Below are positions 5,056 through 20,677 of a stretch of 64,000 nucleotides of DNA, one piece after another (position 1 is the first letter of the stretch; each line of letters begins with the position of its first letter). The notes under the pieces were generated by a model that did no database searches, was not told the DNA's origin, and saw only the letters and a list, made by a program, of their open reading frames with translations. Origin of the DNA: an uncultured Alphaproteobacteria bacterium (GTDB lineage Bacteria; Pseudomonadota; Alphaproteobacteria; HIMB59; GCA-002718135); contig CACIED010000005.1 in NCBI GenBank assembly GCA_902585605.1, positions 586 to 64,585 on the forward strand. The letters run 5' to 3'. Position numbers and translations under genes: made by a program.

Positions 5056-5844
5056 TTAATATGCGCTAGTATTATCAGATTTAGTATCTACATCTTTCAA
5101 TTCTTTTAATAAACTTTCAGCATGTGATGTCATCATTCTAAAATCAGAAAGTAAGGTGGTAAATTGAAAGCCATATTCCATCATTTCTTTCATATACTTA
5201 ACTGATCCATTATGAATTCCAGCAATCTTTCCTTTTTCTTTTGCTTTTTTTGCAATCATTTTTATGTTTGAAAATACCGGATCTTCACGAACATCAAATT
5301 TAGGTGGCAAACCATAAGAAGAACTCATATCTGCAGGCCCAATATAAATACCAGTTAAGTTTGGAACTGAAAGAATGGCATCTAAATTTTCTACTGCCTC
5401 TTTTGTTTCAACCATTGCTAAACTCACTATGTTGTTATTCGCATGCTTATGGTAATCTGATCCATATGCAACCTGAGCTCTCATTGGACCAAAACTTCTT
5501 TGTCCAATAGGGGGGTAATAACAATATGAAACAAACTTTTCGCAGTCCTCTTTTGTATTAATCATTGGTGCAATAATACCCTGAACTCCAAGATCTAACA
5601 TTTTCATAATAATTCCAGGCTCATTCCAAGGAACTCTTGTCATCGGAACAGTGTTACTATTTGATAATCCCTGAACCATCGCAATAGCAGTTGAATAGTC
5701 ATTTTGACCATGTTGCATATCAATTGTAACAGAATCCCATCCCATTTTTCCAAATGCTTCAGCTGTAAAAGAATTAGGAATTGATAGCCATGCATTTATA
5801 GATGCTTCATTTTTTCTCCATATGTCAAAGAGTGAGTTTTTCAT
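5056..5844 (-). CDS. HpcH/HpaI family aldolase (2-keto-3-deoxy-acid aldolase type)
   Basis: 262 aa. N-terminal pattern ..NAWLSIPNSFTAE..GWDSVTIDMQHG.. and overall size fit the HpaI/HpcH class II aldolases. Confidence 0.8.
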   Translation of the reverse strand: MKNSLFDIWRKNEASINAWLSIPNSFTAEAFGKMGWDSVTIDMQHGQNDYSTAIAMVQGLSNSNTVPMTRVPWNEPGIIMKMLDLGVQGIIAPMINTKEDCEKFVSYCYYPPIGQRSFGPMRAQVAYGSDYHKHANNNIVSLAMVETKEAVENLDAILSVPNLTGIYIGPADMSSSYGLPPKFDVREDPVFSNIKMIAKKAKEKGKIAGIHNGSVKYMKEMMEYGFQFTTLLSDFRMMTSHAESLLKELKDVDTKSDNTSAY

Positions 5845-5867: not shown

Positions 5868-6005
5868 TATTTAAATATAATTACTATTAAAATTAACTCG
5901 TAAATATATAATTCTCAAACTTTAGAGGTATTTTGCCCTACTAAATACAATCAACTTGCAGTGATTTTAAAATTCTTTAATGTAATATTATTAAATGGAG
6001 GAATT

Positions 6006-7334
6006 ATGATTAAAACAGTAATAAGTTTTGTATCTGTAATTATTTTATCTACTTCTTTTTCTGCAATATCAAAAACCAAGGTAACTTGGTCGATGGAGTC
6101 TAATGCAGATAGAGACCCAATAATGATTGAAAAATTACAAAATGCTTACAACAATTCTCAAGGCAATTATGAACTCGTTATCGAATTTGAAGATAATGAA
6201 ACAAGATTAACTTCAATGAGAACTGCTATGATTGGTGGTATGGGTCCTGATATCGTCGAGACTCCTGGTCCATCTTATGTAAAAGAGTATCATGCAGCTG
6301 GTATGTTAGAAAATTTAGATTCATACGCTGCAGAATTTGGCTGGAAAGATAAGATGATACCTTGGGCTTATAGTTCAGGAGTTTTCGAAGGAAGTTTATA
6401 CGCAATTCCAAAAACTCATGAATCAATGGTTATGCTTTATAATAAAACTTTATTTGAAGAAAATAATTGGAAAGTACCAACAACATTAGAAGAATTAGAA
6501 GATGTTGCTGGCAAAATTAAAGCAAAAGGTATGAATGTATTTTCATATGGATCAGATGGATGGCAACCTACTCATGAACACCTTGTAGGAATTTATTTAA
6601 ATAACTATGCAGGTCCTCAAGCTGTATATGAAGCAATAATTGGTGAAAGAGAATGGACAGATCCTGTTTTTGTTGAAGCTCTTGAGTTACTTAAAAAACA
6701 TATGGTTGACGAGGGATATTGGTCTGGAAGCCTAGAAAATTATTATGCTATTGGATGGGATGATTTCCATGCTCAATTTGCTAATAGAGGGGCAGCTATG
6801 ATGACAATTGGTACTTGGACTTTTCAAGCAACACAATTAGGTATTGGTGCGAGCGGTGATGAATGGGGTTGGGCTCCACTTCCATCTCTATCTTCGCAAT
6901 CTCCAGATCCTAATTTTATGATTGCAATTGGTACAACTATGTCAGTTAATGCAAATGGTAAAAATAAAGATGGTGCGATAGATGTTTTAAACTGGATAAT
7001 GAGTAACAAAGACAAAGTTCTTGATATTGCTAAAGACTTTGAATTTGGAGAAATGGTAGTTCCATTAACTTTATCTAGCAGTGATATTCCAACTGATATT
7101 GCTCCTCAAGTTCAAGATTATCTAAGCGAATATGCAAGAATTACCGGCGAAGGTAATTATGGATATTGTACTTGGACTTTTTGGCCTGCTGACCCTGGTG
7201 TTCATATTTGGAAAGATATGGAAGTTGTATGGGCTGGCGATATATCAGTTGAAGATTTCTTATATGATCATCAAAAGATGTGGGATAAAGCTAGAAAGAA
7301 TGGCGACACTTTACCAGTTCCATTAAGGAACTAA
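6006..7334 (+). CDS. ABC transporter substrate-binding protein, carbohydrate (family 1) type
   Basis: Signal peptide MIKTVISFVSVIILSTSFSA. About 440 aa, Trp/Tyr-rich, typical of sugar-binding proteins. GGAGG sits 5 nt before the ATG at 6006, so the track's start at 5961 is probably an over-extension. Confidence 0.85.
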   Translation: MIKTVISFVSVIILSTSFSAISKTKVTWSMESNADRDPIMIEKLQNAYNNSQGNYELVIEFEDNETRLTSMRTAMIGGMGPDIVETPGPSYVKEYHAAGMLENLDSYAAEFGWKDKMIPWAYSSGVFEGSLYAIPKTHESMVMLYNKTLFEENNWKVPTTLEELEDVAGKIKAKGMNVFSYGSDGWQPTHEHLVGIYLNNYAGPQAVYEAIIGEREWTDPVFVEALELLKKHMVDEGYWSGSLENYYAIGWDDFHAQFANRGAAMMTIGTWTFQATQLGIGASGDEWGWAPLPSLSSQSPDPNFMIAIGTTMSVNANGKNKDGAIDVLNWIMSNKDKVLDIAKDFEFGEMVVPLTLSSSDIPTDIAPQVQDYLSEYARITGEGNYGYCTWTFWPADPGVHIWKDMEVVWAGDISVEDFLYDHQKMWDKARKNGDTLPVPLRN

Positions 7335-7347
7335 AATAAATATTAAA

Positions 7348-7371
7348 CAGTGAAGCTTCAAAGCTTCACTG
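7348..7371 (+). promoter_or_regulatory. Intercistronic stem-loop after the binding-protein gene
   Basis: Perfect CAGTGAAGCTT-CA-AAGCTTCACTG hairpin 13 nt after the stop codon with no U-tract. Such hairpins commonly stabilise or attenuate transcripts so that the binding protein is made in excess of the permeases. Confidence 0.5.
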
Positions 7372-7380
7372 TATCTAAAA

Positions 7381-8256
7381 ATGAAAATATTTTCTAATAA
7401 AAATTTTGTTGCTTGGTATTTTGTCTTTCCTGTTGCATTCATTCATTTATTTGTAATAGGTATTCCATCACTTGCAAGTTTAGCGTTATGTTTAACTGAC
7501 TGGAGAGGGCTTGGTGAAATAAATTATATTGGTTTTGAAAATTTTATAGAACTATTTGATGATAGATATCTTAAAAAGGCAATTATTAATAATGTAATCT
7601 GGACTATTGCTTTCCTAACTGTTCCAGTTGGAATCGCATTAACTTGTGCTTATCTACTTACAGGAATTAAAAGAGGCCAAATGTTTTTTCGACTTGCTTT
7701 CTTCTTTCCTTATATGCTCGCAAGTGTAATTAATTGTCAAATTTGGAAATATTTATTTCACCCAATTCATGGTCTCGGTGGTTTTTTTGAAAGGATCGGA
7801 TGGGAATTTTTAGCAGTATCTCCGTTTACAACAAAATCTACATCTTTATTTGCAGTAGCATTTGTTGATGGTTGGCATTTCTGGGGATTCCTTGTTGTTA
7901 TATATTTAACAGGTATGTATCAAGTAGATAATCATCTCTATGAAGCTGCAGATATTGAGGGAGCAACAAAATTTCAAAAATTTAGATACATAACTTTACC
8001 AATGATAAGACCAGTATTTATTTTTAGTATAATGATAATAATTATTTGGTCTGTTCCAGTATTTGATTATGTTTATATTTTAACGGGAGGTGGTCCCGCA
8101 TACAGCTCAGAAGTAATAGCAAACTATATGTATTCTCAAGCATTTGAGAGATTTGATGTCGGATACTCTTCAGCAATAGGAACATTAATGTTTTTTTATG
8201 TTATGATTATAGTTGCAATGTTTGGTCTTTTTAGAAGAGCCGGTTGGGATATCTAA
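7381..8256 (+). CDS. ABC sugar transporter permease (MalF/UgpA-like)
   Basis: 291 aa with 6 TM helices and an EAA loop (YEAADIEGATKFQKFRYITLP). Confidence 0.85.
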   Translation: MKIFSNKNFVAWYFVFPVAFIHLFVIGIPSLASLALCLTDWRGLGEINYIGFENFIELFDDRYLKKAIINNVIWTIAFLTVPVGIALTCAYLLTGIKRGQMFFRLAFFFPYMLASVINCQIWKYLFHPIHGLGGFFERIGWEFLAVSPFTTKSTSLFAVAFVDGWHFWGFLVVIYLTGMYQVDNHLYEAADIEGATKFQKFRYITLPMIRPVFIFSIMIIIIWSVPVFDYVYILTGGGPAYSSEVIANYMYSQAFERFDVGYSSAIGTLMFFYVMIIVAMFGLFRRAGWDI

Positions 8257-9092
8257 TGATAGTTGCAAAATATAGAAGAAGAGAAGTAATCTCCAATTAT
8301 ATAATACTAATTATATTTGCTTTGATAGCTATACTGCCTCTAGCAGTTCTTTTATTTAATTCAATTAAGCCTCAAATGGAGTTTGGAGTAAATCCACTTG
8401 GTCCTCCAAATGAAATTAGATTTGAAAATTTTAGTGAAGCTTGGGTTAAAGGAGAGTATGCTAAAGTTTTTTTTAATTCTTTAAAGTTAGTAGTTGGATC
8501 AGTATTTTTGTGCCTTGCAGTTTCACTTGCAGCGGGATTTAGTCTTGCAAAATTAAATCCAAAAGGATCTGCAATAATCGCTGTTTACCTTTTAGTTGGT
8601 ATAAGTATTCCTGCCCAGCTTTATATAGTACCATTGTTTTTATTATGGAAGGAGATACATCTTTTAAACACTCATACAGGTCTTATTATAATTTATACTG
8701 CTTTAAACGCCCCTTTTGCAACTTTTTTAATTAGATCTTATATGATAAGATTACCAGATGAGTTATTTGAAGCTGCAAGATTAGATGGAGCTAATACTTT
8801 TCAACTTTTTTTTAGGGTTGCCTTACCTCTTTCTTGGCCAGTTATTTTGACTGCAGGATTAATTATAGCTCTGGCAGTCTGGAATGAATTTTTATTTGCT
8901 TTAACTTTTATTAGCGAAGAAGGTTTTAAACCTATGGCTACTATATTATTTGCATTTCAGTGGAGGTTTGAAAATAATTACGCACTGCAAAGTGCATCAG
9001 CAATAATGATGGTTGCGCCTGTAGCAATTCTTTTTATGCTATTTCAAAGGAGATTTATTTCTGGGTTAACTAGTGGAGGTTTAAAAGGTTAA
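8256..9092 (+). CDS. ABC sugar transporter permease (MalG/UgpE-like)
   Basis: EAA loop FEAARLDGANTFQLFFRVALP. The ATG at 8256 overlaps the upstream stop codon by 1 nt (the first A of ATG is the last base of TAA). The track's start at 8244 is a non-ATG extension. Confidence 0.85.
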   Translation: MIVAKYRRREVISNYIILIIFALIAILPLAVLLFNSIKPQMEFGVNPLGPPNEIRFENFSEAWVKGEYAKVFFNSLKLVVGSVFLCLAVSLAAGFSLAKLNPKGSAIIAVYLLVGISIPAQLYIVPLFLLWKEIHLLNTHTGLIIIYTALNAPFATFLIRSYMIRLPDELFEAARLDGANTFQLFFRVALPLSWPVILTAGLIIALAVWNEFLFALTFISEEGFKPMATILFAFQWRFENNYALQSASAIMMVAPVAILFMLFQRRFISGLTSGGLKG

Positions 9093-11255
9093 ATGAATTA
9101 CAAGTTAGACAAAAATTATGAAGAAAAAGTTTATGCAGGTGTTTTGGGAAAAATTATAGGTGTTTTTCTTGGAAGACCATTTGAAAATTGGTCATATGAA
9201 AGAATAATGAAAGAGTTAGGACCTATTAATTATTATGTGAATGATAAATTAGATTTTCCACTACCAGTCTCTGATGATGATATTACTGGTACCTTTACTT
9301 TTTTACGTGCTTTTAGAGAATGTAACTATAATAAAAATATAACTGCAAAAGATATAGGCAAAACATGGTTGAATAATATTATTGAAGATAAAACAATATT
9401 GTGGTGGGGTGGAAAAGGGCATTCGGCAGAAGATACTGCCTTCCAGAATTTAAAACAAGGGATAAACGCACCACAAAGTGGATCTATTGAAACTAATGGC
9501 AAAGTTATAGCCGAACAAATAGGAGCTCAAATATTTATTGATGGTTGGGCAATGGTCTCACCAGGTGATCCAGAAAAAGCAGCACATTATGCGAAACTAG
9601 CTGCAAGTGTCAGTCATGATGGAGAAGCGATATATGGTGCTCAAATAGTAGCTGCTTTAGAGTCAATGGCATTTATAGAACATGATTTAAAAAAGTTAGT
9701 TGAGCAAGCTAAAAAATTTATCCCAAAAACATCAGTAATATTTAAATTAATATCTGACATCCAAGAGTGGAGTTCTGGAAATTTAGGATGGGAGCAGGCA
9801 AGGGAAAAAATTGTCGAGAATTATGGTTATGATAAATACTTAGGTAATTGTCATATGGTACCTAATCATGCATTAATAATTATGGCTTTACTATTTGGTG
9901 ATGATGATTTTCAAAAAACAATGATGATTGTTAATACTTCTGGTTGGGATACAGATTGTAATTCTGGAAATGTAGGATGTATTTTAGGAATAAAAAATGG
10001 AATTGATGGTCTTAAAAAAGGACCTGATTATTTGTCTCCTATTAATGATATATTATATTGCCCTTCTGCTTCAGGCGGGGAAACTCTAACTGACGCTTTA
10101 TCAGAAACTTATAAAATAATAAACACAACAAGAAAAATCAACGGACTTCCAGAAATATTACCTAAGAATGGAGCTAAATTTCATTTTGATATTAAGGATT
10201 CAACACAAGGATGGAGAATTGGGAATGGTGATCAATTTTGTGAAACAAAAATAAGCAACATTGAGTATAAATCTTATATAGGTGAAAGAGCTCTTGAGAT
10301 TTCTTATAACAACCTTTCAGTAGATAAAATTTCAGAGGTTTATGTCGAGACTTTTTTTCCTGAAATTATTCTTGGATTAGAGGGAAAAAAGAGAGAAGAC
10401 TTTTTCCATTATGATTATATTTCTTGTCCCACAATTTTCTCTGGACAAAAATTAAAAGTTGAAATTGAAAACAATTCACCTCATAAAGTTTCAATTGCAT
10501 TGTTTTCTAAGCATTGGGCTGAAGATGACAAACTTAAAAAAATTACTTCAAATATTTTTGAATTTAATAGTAATGAAAAAAAAGAAATATCTTGGGAAAT
10601 CCCAAATACTGATTCGAACCCTATAGGTCAAATTGGAATAGATATAATGTCAAACACAAATCAATCTGGTGAAGTTATTCTTAATTATGCCACCTTTGAA
10701 GGAGAACCAAAACAAATCTTTAAAAGACCTCAGCACATTGAAAGTTATAAAAGAGGTATAGAAAAAAAAGAGGGTTACTATGGTCAAATTTGGAGAAATG
10801 CTTGGGTACAAACTTTAGATAAATGGGAAGAAAGAGGAAAGAATTTTAGAATTTGTCAGAACATTGGTAGAGAAATTCTGTTTACAGGAACTGATTTATG
10901 GAAAGATTATTCAGTTTCGTCAAATATTCTTTTACAGTCATGTAACTCCGGTGGACTAGTCTCAAGAGCTCAGGGAGTTAAAAAATACTACACTCTAGAA
11001 ATTTGTAGAAATAATAAATTGAGAATAGGCAAGATGAATAATGATTATACAACACTTAAAGAAGTAGATTTTGAAGTAGAATTTTTTAAGGAGTATAATA
11101 TGAAAATGACTGTTAAAAAAAATAAAATAATAGGACAAATAAATGATAAAACTATTATTGAAATTGAAGATAATGATAATCCATTACTTAATGGAGGTTC
11201 TGGTTTAGTTGTTGAAAATGGAACTTTAGTTACAGATCAAATAACGCTAAGTTAA
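9093..11255 (+). CDS. ADP-ribosylglycohydrolase (ARH/DraG) fold domain fused to an uncharacterised C-terminal region of about 370 aa
   Basis: The N-terminal ~330 aa carry both ARH metal-binding signatures: VSDDDITGT (aa 59-67) and GWDTDCNSGNVG (aa 284-295). The C-terminal half is beta-rich. Its last ~150 aa (LWKDY..NSGGLVSR..GGSGLVVENG) are reminiscent of concanavalin/LamG-type modules. Confidence 0.75.
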   Translation: MNYKLDKNYEEKVYAGVLGKIIGVFLGRPFENWSYERIMKELGPINYYVNDKLDFPLPVSDDDITGTFTFLRAFRECNYNKNITAKDIGKTWLNNIIEDKTILWWGGKGHSAEDTAFQNLKQGINAPQSGSIETNGKVIAEQIGAQIFIDGWAMVSPGDPEKAAHYAKLAASVSHDGEAIYGAQIVAALESMAFIEHDLKKLVEQAKKFIPKTSVIFKLISDIQEWSSGNLGWEQAREKIVENYGYDKYLGNCHMVPNHALIIMALLFGDDDFQKTMMIVNTSGWDTDCNSGNVGCILGIKNGIDGLKKGPDYLSPINDILYCPSASGGETLTDALSETYKIINTTRKINGLPEILPKNGAKFHFDIKDSTQGWRIGNGDQFCETKISNIEYKSYIGERALEISYNNLSVDKISEVYVETFFPEIILGLEGKKREDFFHYDYISCPTIFSGQKLKVEIENNSPHKVSIALFSKHWAEDDKLKKITSNIFEFNSNEKKEISWEIPNTDSNPIGQIGIDIMSNTNQSGEVILNYATFEGEPKQIFKRPQHIESYKRGIEKKEGYYGQIWRNAWVQTLDKWEERGKNFRICQNIGREILFTGTDLWKDYSVSSNILLQSCNSGGLVSRAQGVKKYYTLEICRNNKLRIGKMNNDYTTLKEVDFEVEFFKEYNMKMTVKKNKIIGQINDKTIIEIEDNDNPLLNGGSGLVVENGTLVTDQITLS

Positions 11256-11257
11256 AT

Positions 11258-12241
11258 ATGAAATTTAGAAAATTTGGCTCTCTAGATTGGAATGTGTCTG
11301 AAATAGGTTTAGGCTGTTGGCAGATTGGCGCCGATTGGGGTAATGTAAGTGAAGAGAAAGCTAATGAGGTATTACAATCATCATTTGAAAATGGAGTAAA
11401 TTTTTTTGATACAGCTGATGTTTATGGTGATGGCAGAAGTGAAAAATTTGTCGGAAATTTCATAAATTCTATTTCTGAGAGAATTTATGTAGCAACAAAA
11501 GCTGGTAGGCGTATTAATCCACATGTTGCAAATGGTTATTATGATAAAGATTTAATGGAATCTTTTGTAGATCGATCTTTATTAAATCTAAATATTGAAA
11601 CAATTGACCTTTTACAAATGCACTGTCCACCAACAGAAGTTTATTCATCAGATCATACTTTTGAAATGTTAGATTATTTAGTAGATAAAGGGAAAATACA
11701 AAATTATGGTTTTAGTGTTGAAACAGTTGATCAAGCTTTAGAATGCATTAAAAACCCTAATACAAAATCAATTCAAGTCATCTTTAATATTTTTAGACAA
11801 AAACCTGCAGAAGAATTATTTAAGATTGCAAAAGAAAAAAAAGTAGCAATCATAATTAGAGTTCCTCTTGCTAGTGGCTTGTTGTCAGGAAAATTTAATA
11901 AAGATTCTACCTTTTCTTCAGATGATCATCGAAACTATAATATTAATGGTGATGCATTTGATGTTGGTGAAACATTCTCTGGAGTCAATTACTCAAAAGC
12001 TCTGGAAGCAGTAGAAGAACTCAAAAATATTATTCCAAGTGAAGTAACTCTTTCTCAATTATCTCTTAAATGGATATTAATGTATGAAGCTGTGAGTGTT
12101 GTAATTCCAGGTGCAAAAAATAGAGACCATGTAAATCTAAATACTGCCTCTAGCGAAGTTAATGAAATTTCTTCTTTAATGAATGAGATAAATAATATCT
12201 ATACAAAATATTTCTATGATGATGTACATCATCGTTGGTAA
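11258..12241 (+). CDS. Aldo/keto reductase family oxidoreductase
   Basis: GLGCWQIG..WG, FDTADVYGDGRSE and LDLLQMHCP-type motifs; 327 aa. Confidence 0.85.
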   Translation: MKFRKFGSLDWNVSEIGLGCWQIGADWGNVSEEKANEVLQSSFENGVNFFDTADVYGDGRSEKFVGNFINSISERIYVATKAGRRINPHVANGYYDKDLMESFVDRSLLNLNIETIDLLQMHCPPTEVYSSDHTFEMLDYLVDKGKIQNYGFSVETVDQALECIKNPNTKSIQVIFNIFRQKPAEELFKIAKEKKVAIIIRVPLASGLLSGKFNKDSTFSSDDHRNYNINGDAFDVGETFSGVNYSKALEAVEELKNIIPSEVTLSQLSLKWILMYEAVSVVIPGAKNRDHVNLNTASSEVNEISSLMNEINNIYTKYFYDDVHHRW

Positions 12242-12247
12242 TAAATT

Positions 12248-13393
12248 TTGTTAGAAGAAACTAAGATATTTAGAAGTGCAACTCTTGCATCAATAATAAC
12301 ATCAACTTATCCTATGATTGTTGTGGGATGTTACTTTGGCATAACACCGTGGAATATGAATAGGTTGTCAATTGATGAAACAGATTTGAGTTTTTCAATA
12401 TTAATTTTTGGAATTTTTTTTGTATTATCAAATCAAATTGCTGGAAGAATACTAGTTCCAAAATATGGAACAAGACGAGTAATGTCATTAGCTTTTCCTC
12501 TAATTACCTTTTCTTCATTGTTATCGATAACATCTTCATCATATTTATTATTTTTATTAACTTTCATTCCAGCTGGGATAGGATGGGGCGCTTCTGGACC
12601 AATTGGAGGCATTCATAGTCAACTAATTGAAAAACATTTTAAGAAAATTATTACCCCTTATTATGCTATGGGTTTCAATATTGGTATTCTTGTAGGTGGA
12701 GGTTTAGCTGGTATAATAATGCGCTATAACTTTGAGCCTTATATTATTTTTCTTGTTTTATCTTTTTCTTCAATTTTAGTTGCATTTATAGTTCTTCATT
12801 TGGGGCTACCTAGTAACTTAGATTTCAAAGGTAAAGGTGAAAAATTTAAAATTCCCGAGTCAAATGTTCTTATATTTGGTTTCTTGTTATTTTTTGTTTT
12901 TGGTTCTGGTGGTATAATTATGGATTGGTCAACATTGTGGTTATCCAAGGATTTGAATACCCCTCTTTATCTTGCAAGTACGGGATTAATTTTTTTTAGT
13001 ATTGGTGGTATTTTAGCTAATTTATTCTCTAACACCTTAATAAATATATTTACTGAAAAAGTTGTTGGATGTTATTTTGTGATGATTGGTTCTTCAATAT
13101 TGCTTTTGTCCTTATTAACAAATAATTTTTACATTATACTAGGTGTTTTATCTATCTATGGATTTGCAATAGCAAACTTAGTTCCTATAGTAATTCGCCA
13201 AGCTGTTAAGCAATCTAATGAGAGCATTCCTATGACTGTAACTAATTTAATAACTATTGGATTATCATCCACAATGATTATGCCAGCAGCAATTGGTTTT
13301 CTTGCAGAGACATTTTCCCTAACTTTAAATATGTATTTACTATGCATTATAGTATTTACTTCTGGACTAGTTTTTTTACTTAAGTTTAAATAA
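12248..13393 (+). CDS. MFS-type transporter (about 12 TM)
   Basis: 381-aa polytopic ORF with a GRILVPKYGTRR loop between TM2 and TM3 (MFS signature-like). TTG start; N-terminus uncertain. Confidence 0.6.
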   Translation: MLEETKIFRSATLASIITSTYPMIVVGCYFGITPWNMNRLSIDETDLSFSILIFGIFFVLSNQIAGRILVPKYGTRRVMSLAFPLITFSSLLSITSSSYLLFLLTFIPAGIGWGASGPIGGIHSQLIEKHFKKIITPYYAMGFNIGILVGGGLAGIIMRYNFEPYIIFLVLSFSSILVAFIVLHLGLPSNLDFKGKGEKFKIPESNVLIFGFLLFFVFGSGGIIMDWSTLWLSKDLNTPLYLASTGLIFFSIGGILANLFSNTLINIFTEKVVGCYFVMIGSSILLLSLLTNNFYIILGVLSIYGFAIANLVPIVIRQAVKQSNESIPMTVTNLITIGLSSTMIMPAAIGFLAETFSLTLNMYLLCIIVFTSGLVFLLKFK

Positions 13394-13398
13394 AAATT

Positions 13399-14205
13399 AT
13401 GAATAAATTAAAAATTTCTCAAGTACAATTTCAGGCAAGTCATATCCCAGCTTTAAATGCAGAAACTCTTAAAAAAAGTTTTAATAATGCATTAAAATAT
13501 AAACCTCACTTAATTTGTACACCGGAATGTTCAAACATTATTACTAATGATAAAAAATATTTAATATTAAATGCACCTTATCAAAACACCTGTCCAGTTT
13601 TGAAGATGGCAAAAGATTTCGCCAAAAAAAATAAAGTTACTATAAATCTTGGCTCCTTACTTTTAAAAGTTAAAAATCAGAGAAAACTTGTTAATAGATC
13701 TTATTTTATAAATATTAATGGAGATATAAAAAAAACATATGATAAGATTCATATGTTTGATGTTAAAATCAATAACAAAGAAAAACATCAAGAATCATTT
13801 TTATTTCGAGCTGGTAATAAGATAACTTATACAAAAATTAATAATATTAAAATAGGAATGACTATTTGTTATGATTTACGATTTCCTTCTTTATACAGGC
13901 AACTTGCCAAAAAAGATTGTTCAATTATTTTAGTTCCTGCTGCTTTTACTAGACCGACTGGGAAAGATCATTGGGAAATTTTAAATCGATCAAGGGCAAT
14001 AGAAAATAGTGTATTTATTGTAGCAACAGGTATGTGTGGAAATCATCATAAGAAAAGGAATACTTATGGGTATTCCCTTTTAGTTGATCCTTGGGGGAAG
14101 ATTGTAAATAACACTAAAAATAAACCTTCAATACTTAATTCAACTATTGAACTTTCCCATGTAATAAAAATAAGAAAAAAAATTCCTTCTTTAAAATATG
14201 AGTAA
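13399..14205 (+). CDS. Carbon-nitrogen hydrolase (nitrilase superfamily, Nit/omega-amidase-like)
   Basis: Glu-Lys-Cys triad contexts are present: TPECS, YDKIHMFD, ICYDLRFP. Confidence 0.85.
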   Translation: MNKLKISQVQFQASHIPALNAETLKKSFNNALKYKPHLICTPECSNIITNDKKYLILNAPYQNTCPVLKMAKDFAKKNKVTINLGSLLLKVKNQRKLVNRSYFININGDIKKTYDKIHMFDVKINNKEKHQESFLFRAGNKITYTKINNIKIGMTICYDLRFPSLYRQLAKKDCSIILVPAAFTRPTGKDHWEILNRSRAIENSVFIVATGMCGNHHKKRNTYGYSLLVDPWGKIVNNTKNKPSILNSTIELSHVIKIRKKIPSLKYE

Positions 14206-14821
14206 TTTTAAATCTTTAGTTTCAGGTGTTGGTAATTTAAGTAAAACAAAGAAATACTATGATGATTGGTCAGAAAATTATGATGAAACACTAAAGTTAT
14301 GGAATTATCAAGCGCCCAAAAAAAGTATAAAATTTTTAACGGAAACACTTACCATCAAACCAAAAAATATATTAGACTTAGCATGTGGAACTGGTTTATT
14401 TGGTATTGAGTTAAAAAAAATTTATCCAAAAAGTAATATCTATGGTTCTGATATTTCGAAAAAAAGCTTGAAAATTTCATCAGAAAAAAAAATTTATATA
14501 AAATTAAAATATAAAAATTTTGAAAAATTACATAATTATAATACAAAATTTGATTTAATTTCTTTAATCGGTTCTATGACATATTGTAAAAACTTTAAAA
14601 AACTTTTTGCTAACATTAATAAAAATATTAAAAAAAAAGGCTTTGTGTTATTTACACATAGAGTTGATTTATGGAAGCAGCAGGATTTTTTCAATGTTTT
14701 AAAAAAACATCAAATGACATTCAAAATCACTAAAATTTCTAGACCACTAAATTATTTACCTTTGAATAGAGATTTTAAAAACAAAATAAAAATCAAGATT
14801 GTTTTGTTACAAAAATATTAA
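14198..14821 (+). CDS. Class I SAM-dependent methyltransferase
   Basis: Motif I ILDLACGTGLFG. Overlaps the upstream gene by 8 nt. Confidence 0.75.
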   Translation: MSNFKSLVSGVGNLSKTKKYYDDWSENYDETLKLWNYQAPKKSIKFLTETLTIKPKNILDLACGTGLFGIELKKIYPKSNIYGSDISKKSLKISSEKKIYIKLKYKNFEKLHNYNTKFDLISLIGSMTYCKNFKKLFANINKNIKKKGFVLFTHRVDLWKQQDFFNVLKKHQMTFKITKISRPLNYLPLNRDFKNKIKIKIVLLQKY

Positions 14822-15455: not shown

Positions 15456-16607
15456 ATGAATGCTCTAATTAATGCCATTAATGAAAAAACTAAAATAATT
15501 CTTGAGAATGATGGAAGATTATTAAAGAAATCATTTTTTGGTCTATTATTACTTTCTCTTGTTTTTCAAGGAGGAGAGTTTGGAGAAGTTATACGATCAT
15601 CAATGGTAGATGCTTATATCCAGGTATCTGTTTTTGTAGGATTTACTCTGTTTGTTTTTATTGGATTAGATAGTTTAACAAAGTTTGATGTAAAGAATTT
15701 TTTATCTAAGACACAAAAGTTCCATGTCGGTATAGCTGCTTTTTTAGGTGCCATACCTGGATGTGGTGGAGCTATAATAGTTGTGACGCAGTATATACAG
15801 GGACGTATTTCTTTTGGCTCCTTAGTAGCTGTATTAACAGCAACAATGGGAGATGCTGCTTTCTTAATACTTGCTATTGAGCCTTCAACTGGTTTTTTAA
15901 TATTTGGAATTGGAATAGTTGTTGGATCAATTTCTGGATATGTAATCGATTTTATCCATGGCACAAACTTTATGCAAGCAAAAACAAAAATAAAAGTTGA
16001 ATTTGAAAAAATAAATAAAACTTTTGTATCTAATTTTAACTTCTTTTGGCTTTTTTTATTTATTCCTGGTTTTGTTTTAGGAATTTTAGTTGCGTTTCAA
16101 ATTGAATTTGTATCTTCAATTTATAATTCATTATTAGTGTTGATTGCTTCTGCTGGAGCAATACTTTCAATATTTATGTGGTCATTAAATCCTTTAAGTG
16201 ATTTTCAATGTTCAACTGACAAAAGTAGAGGATTACTATCAAGAGTAGTAGATACAACTAATTTTGTAACTACTTGGGTAATTAGTGGTTTCCTTGTTTT
16301 TGAAATCTTTATGTACTTTACAAGTTTAGATTTAAAAATATTTTTTGATTTATGGCTTCCATTTATTCCATTGATAGCAATTTTATTTGGTTTCTTACCA
16401 GGATGTGGGCCTCAAGTTGTGGTGGCAACGTTTTATCTAAATGGTTATATTCCACTTTCTGCAGAATTAGGTAATGCAATCTCAAATGATGGTGATGCTT
16501 TATTTCCAGCAATAGCTCTTGCACCAAAAGCTGCAATTTTAGCGACACTTTATAGCGGAATACCTGCATTAGTGGTTGCCTATGGGTATTTTTTCATATT
16601 CGAGTAA
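15456..16607 (+). CDS. Polytopic membrane protein with duplicated PGCG motifs; putative MntX-type Mn2+ transporter
   Basis: 383 aa, about 10 TM, with two repeat halves each carrying a PGCGG/PGCGP motif. It is divergent from mntR and shares the operator. The MntX family was reported in marine bacteria including SAR11 (Green, Todd and Johnston 2013, as I recall). It has no Nramp or MntP features. Confidence 0.5.
   Translation: MNALINAINEKTKIILENDGRLLKKSFFGLLLLSLVFQGGEFGEVIRSSMVDAYIQVSVFVGFTLFVFIGLDSLTKFDVKNFLSKTQKFHVGIAAFLGAIPGCGGAIIVVTQYIQGRISFGSLVAVLTATMGDAAFLILAIEPSTGFLIFGIGIVVGSISGYVIDFIHGTNFMQAKTKIKVEFEKINKTFVSNFNFFWLFLFIPGFVLGILVAFQIEFVSSIYNSLLVLIASAGAILSIFMWSLNPLSDFQCSTDKSRGLLSRVVDTTNFVTTWVISGFLVFEIFMYFTSLDLKIFFDLWLPFIPLIAILFGFLPGCGPQVVVATFYLNGYIPLSAELGNAISNDGDALFPAIALAPKAAILATLYSGIPALVVAYGYFFIFE

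Positions 16608-20601: not shown

Positions 20602-20677
<76 letters not shown>

Follow-up and report, generated by a model that had tools for sequence, protein, structure and literature searches.

The stretch of DNA analysed here, 64,000 nucleotides from the genome of an uncultured alphaproteobacterium (the window), carries a gene for a 720-aa, three-domain protein, ARH-long, directly behind the permease genes of a carbohydrate importer of the ATP-binding cassette (ABC) type. ARH-long belongs to the ADP-ribosylglycohydrolase (ARH) superfamily by profile, fold and motifs, and its ARH domain is followed by two beta-sandwiches of sugar-binding type. On balance we think it probable that ARH-long is a cytoplasmic, divalent-metal-dependent glycosidase that frees ribose or another furanose from an imported glycoside, and not a protein de-ADP-ribosylase. 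This reading draws on the conserved metal-ligand positions of the ARH domain, on the kind of domains fused to it and on the recurrence of importer and enzyme genes together in distant phyla.

A preliminary description of the window had given the open reading frame (ORF) its exact coordinates (Table 1). ARH-long is not a chance ORF, since it has thousands of matches in the protein database, relatives in at least 594 species genomes and 163 positions that are at least 95% conserved among 100 relatives. The genomes belong to a species-level collection (one genome per species) in which at least 594 stretches encode an ARH-long relative; nearly all of the best 80 of these span about the whole protein, and 3 are shortened, 2 of them at a contig end. 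The 100 relatives, on which all conservation figures given below are based, come from several phyla. The best 120 database matches are all of ~720 aa, with 56-96% identity, and most of them stem from marine metagenomes; hundreds of member sequences fall into each of several 90%-identity clusters, and the sole name that the source attaches to the matches is 'ADP-ribosylglycohydrolase'. The nearest relatives of the window protein (82-93% identity) are found in single-cell genomes labelled uncultured Alphaproteobacteria (AG-xxx), and relatives that are full-length but share only 42-49% identity come from Chloroflexota (many), Bacillota, Chthonomonadaceae, Nitrospirales, SAR324 and one Bacteroidetes metagenome-assembled genome. 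A scan of ARH-long with NCBIfam matched no family model, and a defence or toxin-antitoxin role was dropped after the PADLOC defence models gave no match. Near or beside a full-length copy, six Chloroflexota loci (L035, L037, L044, L059, L070 and L072) also contain ARH-long-like ORFs of ~440-600 aa, which could be truncated variants, pseudogenes or ORF-calling artefacts.

The ARH domain and its metal-ligand motifs

The Pfam profile ADP_ribosyl_GH (PF03747) matches aa 16-308 of ARH-long (E 6e-51, 174.3 bits against a gathering cutoff of 26.2, profile positions 2-285 of 287), and a Pfam scan at E<=1 found nothing besides it. The same profile was recovered in 57/57 of the diverse ARH-long members that we surveyed with Pfam at E<=0.01. 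In an AlphaFold2 model of the full-length protein, built from a 35-sequence alignment, the chain is helical from aa 1 to ~349, and Foldseek matches this part to DraG (2woc, TMt 0.63, E 3.7e-5) and to a poly(ADP-ribose) glycohydrolase (5zqy, TMt 0.55). By sequence, the only solved ARH reached in phmmer and profile searches against the PDB was the uncharacterised MJ1187 (1t5j), and this marginally (E 0.0035-0.1). As DraG and ARH3 were not reached in these searches, the motifs were mapped through the canonical short ARHs of related loci. A profile-profile alignment with these ~380-aa proteins sets GKIIGVFLGRPFE onto GGAIGDALGxPxE, which makes E31 the counterpart of the canonical Glu, and sets S60-D61-D62 onto canonical T-D-D and G-W-D286-T-D288-C289 onto G-R-D-x-D-S. 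The same motif register was obtained from HMMER alignments to MJ1187 and from BLASTP against E. coli YegU.

In DraG and ARH3, the Glu, [ST]DD and DxD[ST] positions hold the two Mg or Mn ions. Conservation at these positions is close to complete: E31, D62, D63, G66 and T67 are present in 100% of the relatives, as are D286, T287, D288, C289 and N290; D61 is found in 99%, and 98% have a T or S at position 60. The metal site of ARH-long is thus predicted to be intact. The DDD and DTD residues, which the preliminary description had read as di-metal signatures of an ARH protein, fall on canonical metal-ligand positions, and the assignment to the family holds. Its prediction of a catalytically competent domain also gains support, with the nuance that the last ligand position is occupied by the invariant C289. 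The first motif had been numbered aa 59-67, one residue too early at its start, and SDDDITGT in fact occupies aa 60-67; the second, GWDTDCNSGNVG, lies at aa 284-295 as claimed.

The metal site carries two twists specific to this family, a third Asp (D63) and the invariant Cys at position 289 in place of Ser/Thr. Many further invariant polar residues (among them W105, E113, S129-G130-S131, N135, Q142, Q146, D150, S174-H175-D176-G-E178, H254 and N258-H259) cluster in aa ~98-180, and aa ~98-150 form a 50-residue invariant segment found only in this family. On sequence grounds ARH-long can be placed as a deep, distinct ARH clade. When the window protein is compared with 53 relatives from loci that are neither SAR11-like (a label that we assigned by inference) nor from other Alphaproteobacteria, identity is 62% in the ARH domain and 28-32% in the beta domains. 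The ARH domain is hence the slowest-evolving part of ARH-long, and the beta domains evolve faster.

Two beta-sandwiches behind the ARH domain

The C-terminal half had been described as a beta-rich extension, and the full-length model (pLDDT 75.7, pTM 0.81) bears this out. Indeed, aa ~355-720 form two beta-sandwiches, with domains modelled at aa ~360-545 and ~585-720 and a pLDDT mostly between 84 and 96. The pTM of 0.81 suggests that the whole chain may form one compact unit. The middle domain, folded alone (aa 350-575), gave a pLDDT of 85.7 and a pTM of 0.84. Against the PDB, Foldseek matched it to 2c26 (E 1.6e-7), to a carbohydrate-binding module (CBM) of family CBM22 (4xup, TMt 0.67-0.70) and to CBM4, CBM11 and CBM16 (TMt 0.5-0.6); overall, its matches to type-B CBM jelly rolls range in E from 1e-7 to 1e-5 and in TM from 0.5 to 0.7. 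No Pfam sequence match to this domain was found in the window protein or its 57 relatives, and the likeness to CBM4/CBM22 is one of fold only. The preliminary description had missed this domain, as well as the link to ribokinase described below.

For the C-terminal domain, modelled at a pLDDT of 86-96, the top PDB match in Foldseek was mouse galactocerebrosidase (3zr5, E 2.9e-9), aligned over its beta-sandwich and lectin domain. Next came the CBM66 of a Bacillus subtilis levanase (4azz/4b1m), with a TMt of 0.80-0.81 and a root-mean-square deviation of 2.0-2.3 A over ~156 columns at 18% identity. A family profile run with hmmsearch against PDB sequences also reached the levanase CBM66 (E 3.4e-5, or 5.8e-4 with a more diverse alignment), a weak signal of 21-25 bits. 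Pfam Glyco_hydro_59_C (PF21708) is matched by 30/57 relatives at E<=0.01. One relative, P0108, scores 31.3 bits with this profile, whose cutoff is 27, and another, P0030, scores 25.3 bits; the window protein itself has no match to it at E<=1. The last ~150 aa had been likened to concanavalin, LamG and DUF1080-type sandwiches, which is right at the level of fold and clan. The DUF1080 family itself (now 3keto-disac_hyd, PF06439) does not match the window protein and was found in only 2/57 relatives (best E 9e-4); its fold is of this class, but the domain lies nearer to GH59_C and CBM66. All the strings quoted in that description were located, LWKDYSVSS at aa 602-610, NSGGLVSRAQG at aa 618-628, YYTLEI at aa 632-637 and GGSGLVVENGTLV at aa 701-713.

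The arrangement of a beta-sandwich and then a concanavalin-like lectin domain after the catalytic domain is shared with galactocerebrosidase, an enzyme of glycoside hydrolase (GH) family 59, in which both domains contribute to the substrate pocket. The catalytic domain of GH59 is a TIM barrel and that of ARH-long is helical; with ~10% identity and a global TM of 0.18-0.20, the likeness is at fold level only. The second comparison concerns the CBM66 of the B. subtilis exo-levanase SacC, which the C-terminal ~135 aa of ARH-long match by profile and by structure. This module sits on a secreted GH32 enzyme and binds the terminal fructose of levan, whereas its counterpart here belongs to a predicted cytoplasmic protein.

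Searched with aa 341-720, a library of 1.8 billion representative proteins yielded 674 clusters. Among those inspected, the long matches all carry the ARH domain, and as far as sampled the beta module occurs only behind this ARH domain. The many matches of 270-390 aa were considered as a stand-alone C-terminal module and rejected, as inspection placed their starts within the ARH domain or at an internal Met that is conserved, which makes them contig-edge fragments. In the literature we found no description of an ARH fused to CBM-like domains, or of such an architecture linked to SAR11.

An importer and enzyme module across phyla

Seventy-nine of the related loci were ORF-called and clustered. 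The order binding protein-permease-permease-ARH-long recurs in SAR11-like, other alphaproteobacterial, Chloroflexota and Bacillota loci, often with a LacI regulator first, and the importer stands with ARH-long in 43-48/79 loci. In the 51 loci from outside the SAR11-like group, counting only the same-strand operon, the two permeases were present in 22/51 and 21/51, the binding protein in 18/51 and the LacI regulator in 13/51. Among the other proteins of these operons, Pfam recognised 10 PfkB kinases, 5 short ARHs, 3 inosine-uridine (IU) nucleoside hydrolases and 3 Zn-dehydrogenases. With 337 bits in TIGR02152, whose equivalog cutoff is 299.65, the PfkB partner qualifies as a true ribokinase; the LacI partner comes nearest to RbsR and CytR, below their cutoffs. 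Binding proteins beside ARH-long in other phyla are 32-51% identical to that of the window (median 276 bits), and because they are far closer to it than any solved one (best 92 bits), importer and enzyme travel together.

In the window, the stop codon of permease 2 abuts the start codon of ARH-long. No signal peptide is evident in ARH-long when its sequence is read by eye, without a predictor, and the hydrophobic stretch at its N-terminus corresponds to the first of the conserved ARH helices. The lack of an evident signal peptide agrees with the preliminary description, whose prediction that the protein acts in the cytoplasm on the imported substrate is further supported, at the level of gene order, by the conservation of the importer-enzyme module across phyla.

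Two kinds of locus hold more than one ARH gene. In other SAR11-like single-cell genomes (L009-L020, e.g. L010:3586-12341), 2 or 4 tandem ARH-long paralogues lie between permease 2 and an aldo/keto reductase, a slot that holds a single copy in the window. These copies are 51-71% identical overall, with a mean of 72% in their ARH domains and 47-51% in their beta domains, and tandem arrays of this kind are common for glycosidases that diversify in specificity. In some Chloroflexota operons (L031, L053, L055, L064 and L069, e.g. L055:6857-8002), a canonical ~380-aa ARH with the motifs GDALG..E, TDDS and DxDS is encoded directly upstream of ARH-long, which suggests that two ARH-fold enzymes act in one pathway in those operons.

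Table 1. Features of ARH-long and of the adjoining gene string (window coordinates).
Feature	Position	Strand	Basis
ARH-long, full gene including stop codon	9093..11255	+	ATG-to-stop ORF, 720 aa
All-alpha ARH catalytic domain (predicted), aa 1-350	9093..10142	+	Pfam PF03747, AlphaFold model, Foldseek
E31, counterpart of the N-terminal Glu in GxxxGxPxE	9183..9185	+	Aligns with Glu of short ARH, MJ1187 and YegU
Putative metal motif 1, S60-D61-D62-D63-I-T-G-T67 (canonical [ST]-D-D)	9270..9293	+	hhalign against canonical short ARHs
Putative metal motif 2, G284-W-D286-T-D288-C289-N-S-G-N-V-G295 (canonical D-x-D-[ST])	9942..9977	+	Aligns with GGDTDS of MJ1187 and GRDxDS of short ARHs
Middle beta-sandwich, aa ~355-550, CBM4/22/11/44-type jelly roll	10155..10742	+	AlphaFold, Foldseek
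C-terminal concanavalin-like lectin domain, aa ~585-720, CBM66-like and GH59_C-like	10845..11252	+	Model, Foldseek, profile
Periplasmic solute-binding protein of CUT1 (oligosaccharide-type) ABC importer	5961..7334	+	Pfam SBP_bac_1 (E 1.7e-23), SBP_bac_8
Palindromic hairpin in the 46-nt gap between binding-protein and permease 1 genes	7347..7372	.	Perfect 11-bp stem, ACAGTGAAGCT-TCAA-AGCTTCACTGT
ABC importer permease 1	7381..8256	+	Pfam BPD_transp_1; cluster in 47/79 loci
ABC importer permease 2	8244..9092	+	Pfam BPD_transp_1 (E 9e-21); cluster in 48/79 loci
Aldo/keto reductase, AKR11-like	11258..12241	+	Pfam Aldo_ket_red (E 1.4e-59); nearest structures IolS and GSP69
Major facilitator superfamily (MFS) transporter, same tightly packed gene string	12248..13393	+	Pfam MFS_1

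The closest solved relatives of the binding protein (4g68, 3vxb and 7ehp) bind xylo- or chito-oligosaccharides. Its ORF begins at a GTG and has 457 aa, against 442-445 aa in homologues, and translation probably starts at M16 (nt 6006), behind which a Sec-type signal peptide (MIKTVISFVSVIILSTSFSA) follows. The hairpin behind the gene may stabilise the mRNA or act in attenuation, and in this way set how much binding protein is made relative to permease. No ORF for a MalK/MsiK-type ATPase was found in the window, where just an ABC-F protein and an ABC ATPase of 229 aa occur; in CUT1 systems the ATPase is often a shared one whose gene lies at another locus. A short ARH gene is likewise missing from the 64 kb.

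Downstream of ARH-long, an aldo/keto reductase is encoded in the SAR11-like loci and in 3 Chloroflexota loci and is a possible pathway partner. Its type, AKR11 and IolS/GSP69-like, gave no specific clue. The MFS gene is syntenic in SAR11-like loci only, and not in the other loci sampled, and its functional link with ARH-long is uncertain. In all SAR11-like loci two genes lie 3' of it, which in the window occupy 13399-14821: a C-N hydrolase gene that overlaps a gene for an S-adenosylmethionine methyltransferase by 8 nt. The window C-N hydrolase is nearest to deaminated-glutathione amidase models, below their cutoffs, and no link of this pair with the ARH gene is evident outside SAR11. Upstream of the importer and divergent from it, an HpcH/HpaI-type 2-keto-3-deoxy-sugar-acid aldolase (5056-5844, minus strand) is conserved only in SAR11-like loci; taken with the aldo/keto reductase, this enzyme might be a sign that SAR11 uses a non-phosphorylative route for sugars. 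The ArsP_2-type permease with 10 transmembrane segments (15456-16607, E 1e-119) downstream of the gene string and the five tRNA genes of the window (Phe, His, Leu, Val and Asp, at 20602, 32252, 32395, 38585 and 38664) are ordinary chromosomal context. The window has a G+C content of ~29%, which, along with its nearest relatives, would fit an organism of SAR11 type, and a scan for promoters and terminators was uninformative in this AT-rich DNA.

Proposed function, alternatives and meaning

In the reaction that we propose, the CUT1 importer would take in a small glycoside or oligosaccharide with a terminal ribofuranosyl or other furanosyl unit, and the ARH domain would bind this sugar at its di-metal centre (E31, S60/D61/D62/D63 and D286/D288/C289) and hydrolyse the glycosidic bond. 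The CBM4/22-like and CBM66-like sandwiches may pack on the catalytic domain and contribute to the aglycone side of the pocket or act as its gate. If galactocerebrosidase is a guide, they probably shape that side; the contacts themselves are suggested by the pTM only. The ribose released would then be a substrate for ribokinase, whose gene belongs to this operon in many other genomes; in the SAR11-type genome studied here, a product may instead be handled by the aldo/keto reductase encoded downstream. The sugar is most likely ribose because the operon partners include ribokinase, an RbsR-like regulator and nucleoside hydrolases, and because of the known chemistry of ARH enzymes.

Several points weigh against this proposal. 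The 79 loci are a small share of the at least 594 available, and ribokinase is found in the operon of only ~10/51 loci outside the SAR11-like group and nowhere in the window. As the ligand of CBM66 is fructofuranose, the sugar could be one other than ribose, and domains that resemble carbohydrate-binding modules can be purely structural. The model of the ARH part, of moderate confidence, drops below a pLDDT of 50 at aa 46-60 and 98-146. Finally, tight gene spacing alone is weak evidence for an operon in compact SAR11 genomes.

That ARH-long is a (ADP-ribosyl)hydrolase of the DraG/ARH1/ARH3 type, acting on protein, nucleic acid, poly- or oligo-ADP-ribose or O-acetyl-ADP-ribose and using its beta-sandwiches to recognise the target, seems improbable to us. 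To our knowledge, the biochemically characterised ARH enzymes all act on ADP-ribosyl linkages. Furthermore, ARH-long is a member of Pfam ADP_ribosyl_GH, resembles DraG and another ADP-ribose-cleaving glycohydrolase in fold and shares with DraG, ARH1 and ARH3 the all-alpha fold, the N-terminal Glu, the apparently intact [ST]DD and DxD[ST] di-metal motifs and, presumably, metal-assisted hydrolysis at the anomeric carbon of ribose. It is, however, twice as long as these enzymes and differs from them in its two C-terminal beta-sandwiches, in C289, in the extra D63 and in the segment of aa ~98-150, whose invariant residues replace part of the usual substrate-binding region; the marginal likeness by sequence to solved ARHs, limited to MJ1187, points the same way. 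The genetic context also argues against such a role. The gene is placed in a sugar-import operon and not in a regulatory pair with an ADP-ribosyltransferase, and across phyla it is syntenic with genes for a carbohydrate ABC importer, a LacI/RbsR-like repressor, ribokinase and nucleoside hydrolases. Of the annotated neighbours, none was identified as an ADP-ribosyltransferase, sirtuin, macrodomain or nitrogenase gene. Tandem paralogue arrays would moreover be atypical for a regulatory eraser.

We regard as unlikely, though less so, that ARH-long is a catabolic glycosidase for a sugar other than ribose, such as fructofuranose, arabinofuranose or a glycosylated osmolyte, the link to ribokinase being secondary. 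The nearest relative of the C-terminal domain binds terminal fructofuranose, ribokinase is missing from the window and from most loci, it is an aldo/keto reductase and not a kinase that lies 3' of the gene in SAR11, and GH127 and GH94 enzymes are occasional neighbours. Ribose is nevertheless what connects the commonest operon partners other than the transporter (ribokinase, a second ARH and the IU nucleoside hydrolases), the regulator is RbsR-like, and ARH chemistry is known to take place at C1'' of ribose. A binding protein devoid of catalysis, whether a lectin-like sensor or a crystallin-like ARH relic, or a chance neighbour of the transporter with an unrelated housekeeping role, is to our mind very improbable. 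Dead ARH-fold proteins do exist (jellyfish J1 crystallins and ARH2/ADPRHL1 are examples), and the catalytic activity of ARH-long is a prediction. In contrast to what a relic would lead one to expect, all the canonical metal-ligand positions and many polar residues of the ARH domain are invariant across phyla, and this domain is the slowest to evolve; chance adjacency is countered by a link to the importer that recurs in distant phyla with co-diverging binding proteins.

Related arrangements of genes have been described. In E. coli yegTUV, a dedicated repressor controls a locus in which the ARH-family gene yegU has a transporter gene on one side and a gene for a PfkB sugar kinase on the other (PMC10819704). 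The preliminary description had cited yegU and yegT as a precedent. The analogy is fair, yet YegU is related only remotely: it was rejected as a close homologue of ARH-long on a BLASTP identity of 26% over 39 aa and an hhalign probability of 6%. The locus also differs in that YegU has 334 aa and no beta-sandwiches, the transporter is a nucleoside-type MFS symporter and not a CUT1 ABC importer, and the regulator is of GntR and not LacI type. The rus loci of Bacteroidetes combine ribokinase(s), a transporter and a regulator (LacI in some) with variable ribose-releasing enzymes that include ARHs and nucleoside hydrolases, and were proposed to free ribose from ribose-containing nutrients (bioRxiv 10.1101/574913). 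They are based on SusC/D with a different permease, and their ARHs have not been reported with CBM-like domains, whereas ARH-long stands with a binding-protein-dependent ABC importer in SAR11, Chloroflexota and Bacillota. ARH-long is thus distinct from the ARHs of the rus loci and from yegTUV in clade, architecture and transporter type. In a survey of SAR11 binding proteins, a single sugar-binding protein was listed, SAR11_0769, and the ARH-long locus was not found there (PMC11485210).

We would go further only tentatively, and hold it possible but doubtful that ARH-long founds a new class of glycoside hydrolase, metal-dependent, of ARH fold and with CBM-like domains built in, through which SAR11, the most abundant bacterial group in the surface ocean, uses a ribose-containing glycoside from dissolved organic matter, and likewise Chloroflexota and Bacillota. 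The tandem paralogue arrays would then encode different aglycone specificities, the substrate would be a new and widely consumed component of marine dissolved organic carbon, and the chemistry of ARH enzymes would extend beyond ADP-ribose.

ARH enzymes have been studied almost wholly as erasers of ADP-ribosylation, and the ARH-long clade is tied instead to a sugar importer, to ribokinase and to domains of sugar-binding type. If ARH-long is a catabolic glycosidase, a second biological role of major importance would fall to the ARH fold. This would also provide a working hypothesis for ARH genes that lie beside transporters and sugar kinases, such as E. coli yegU and those of the Bacteroidetes rus loci. 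It would further point to a ribose-bearing compound for which streamlined SAR11 genomes keep a whole ABC system and up to four copies of the enzyme.

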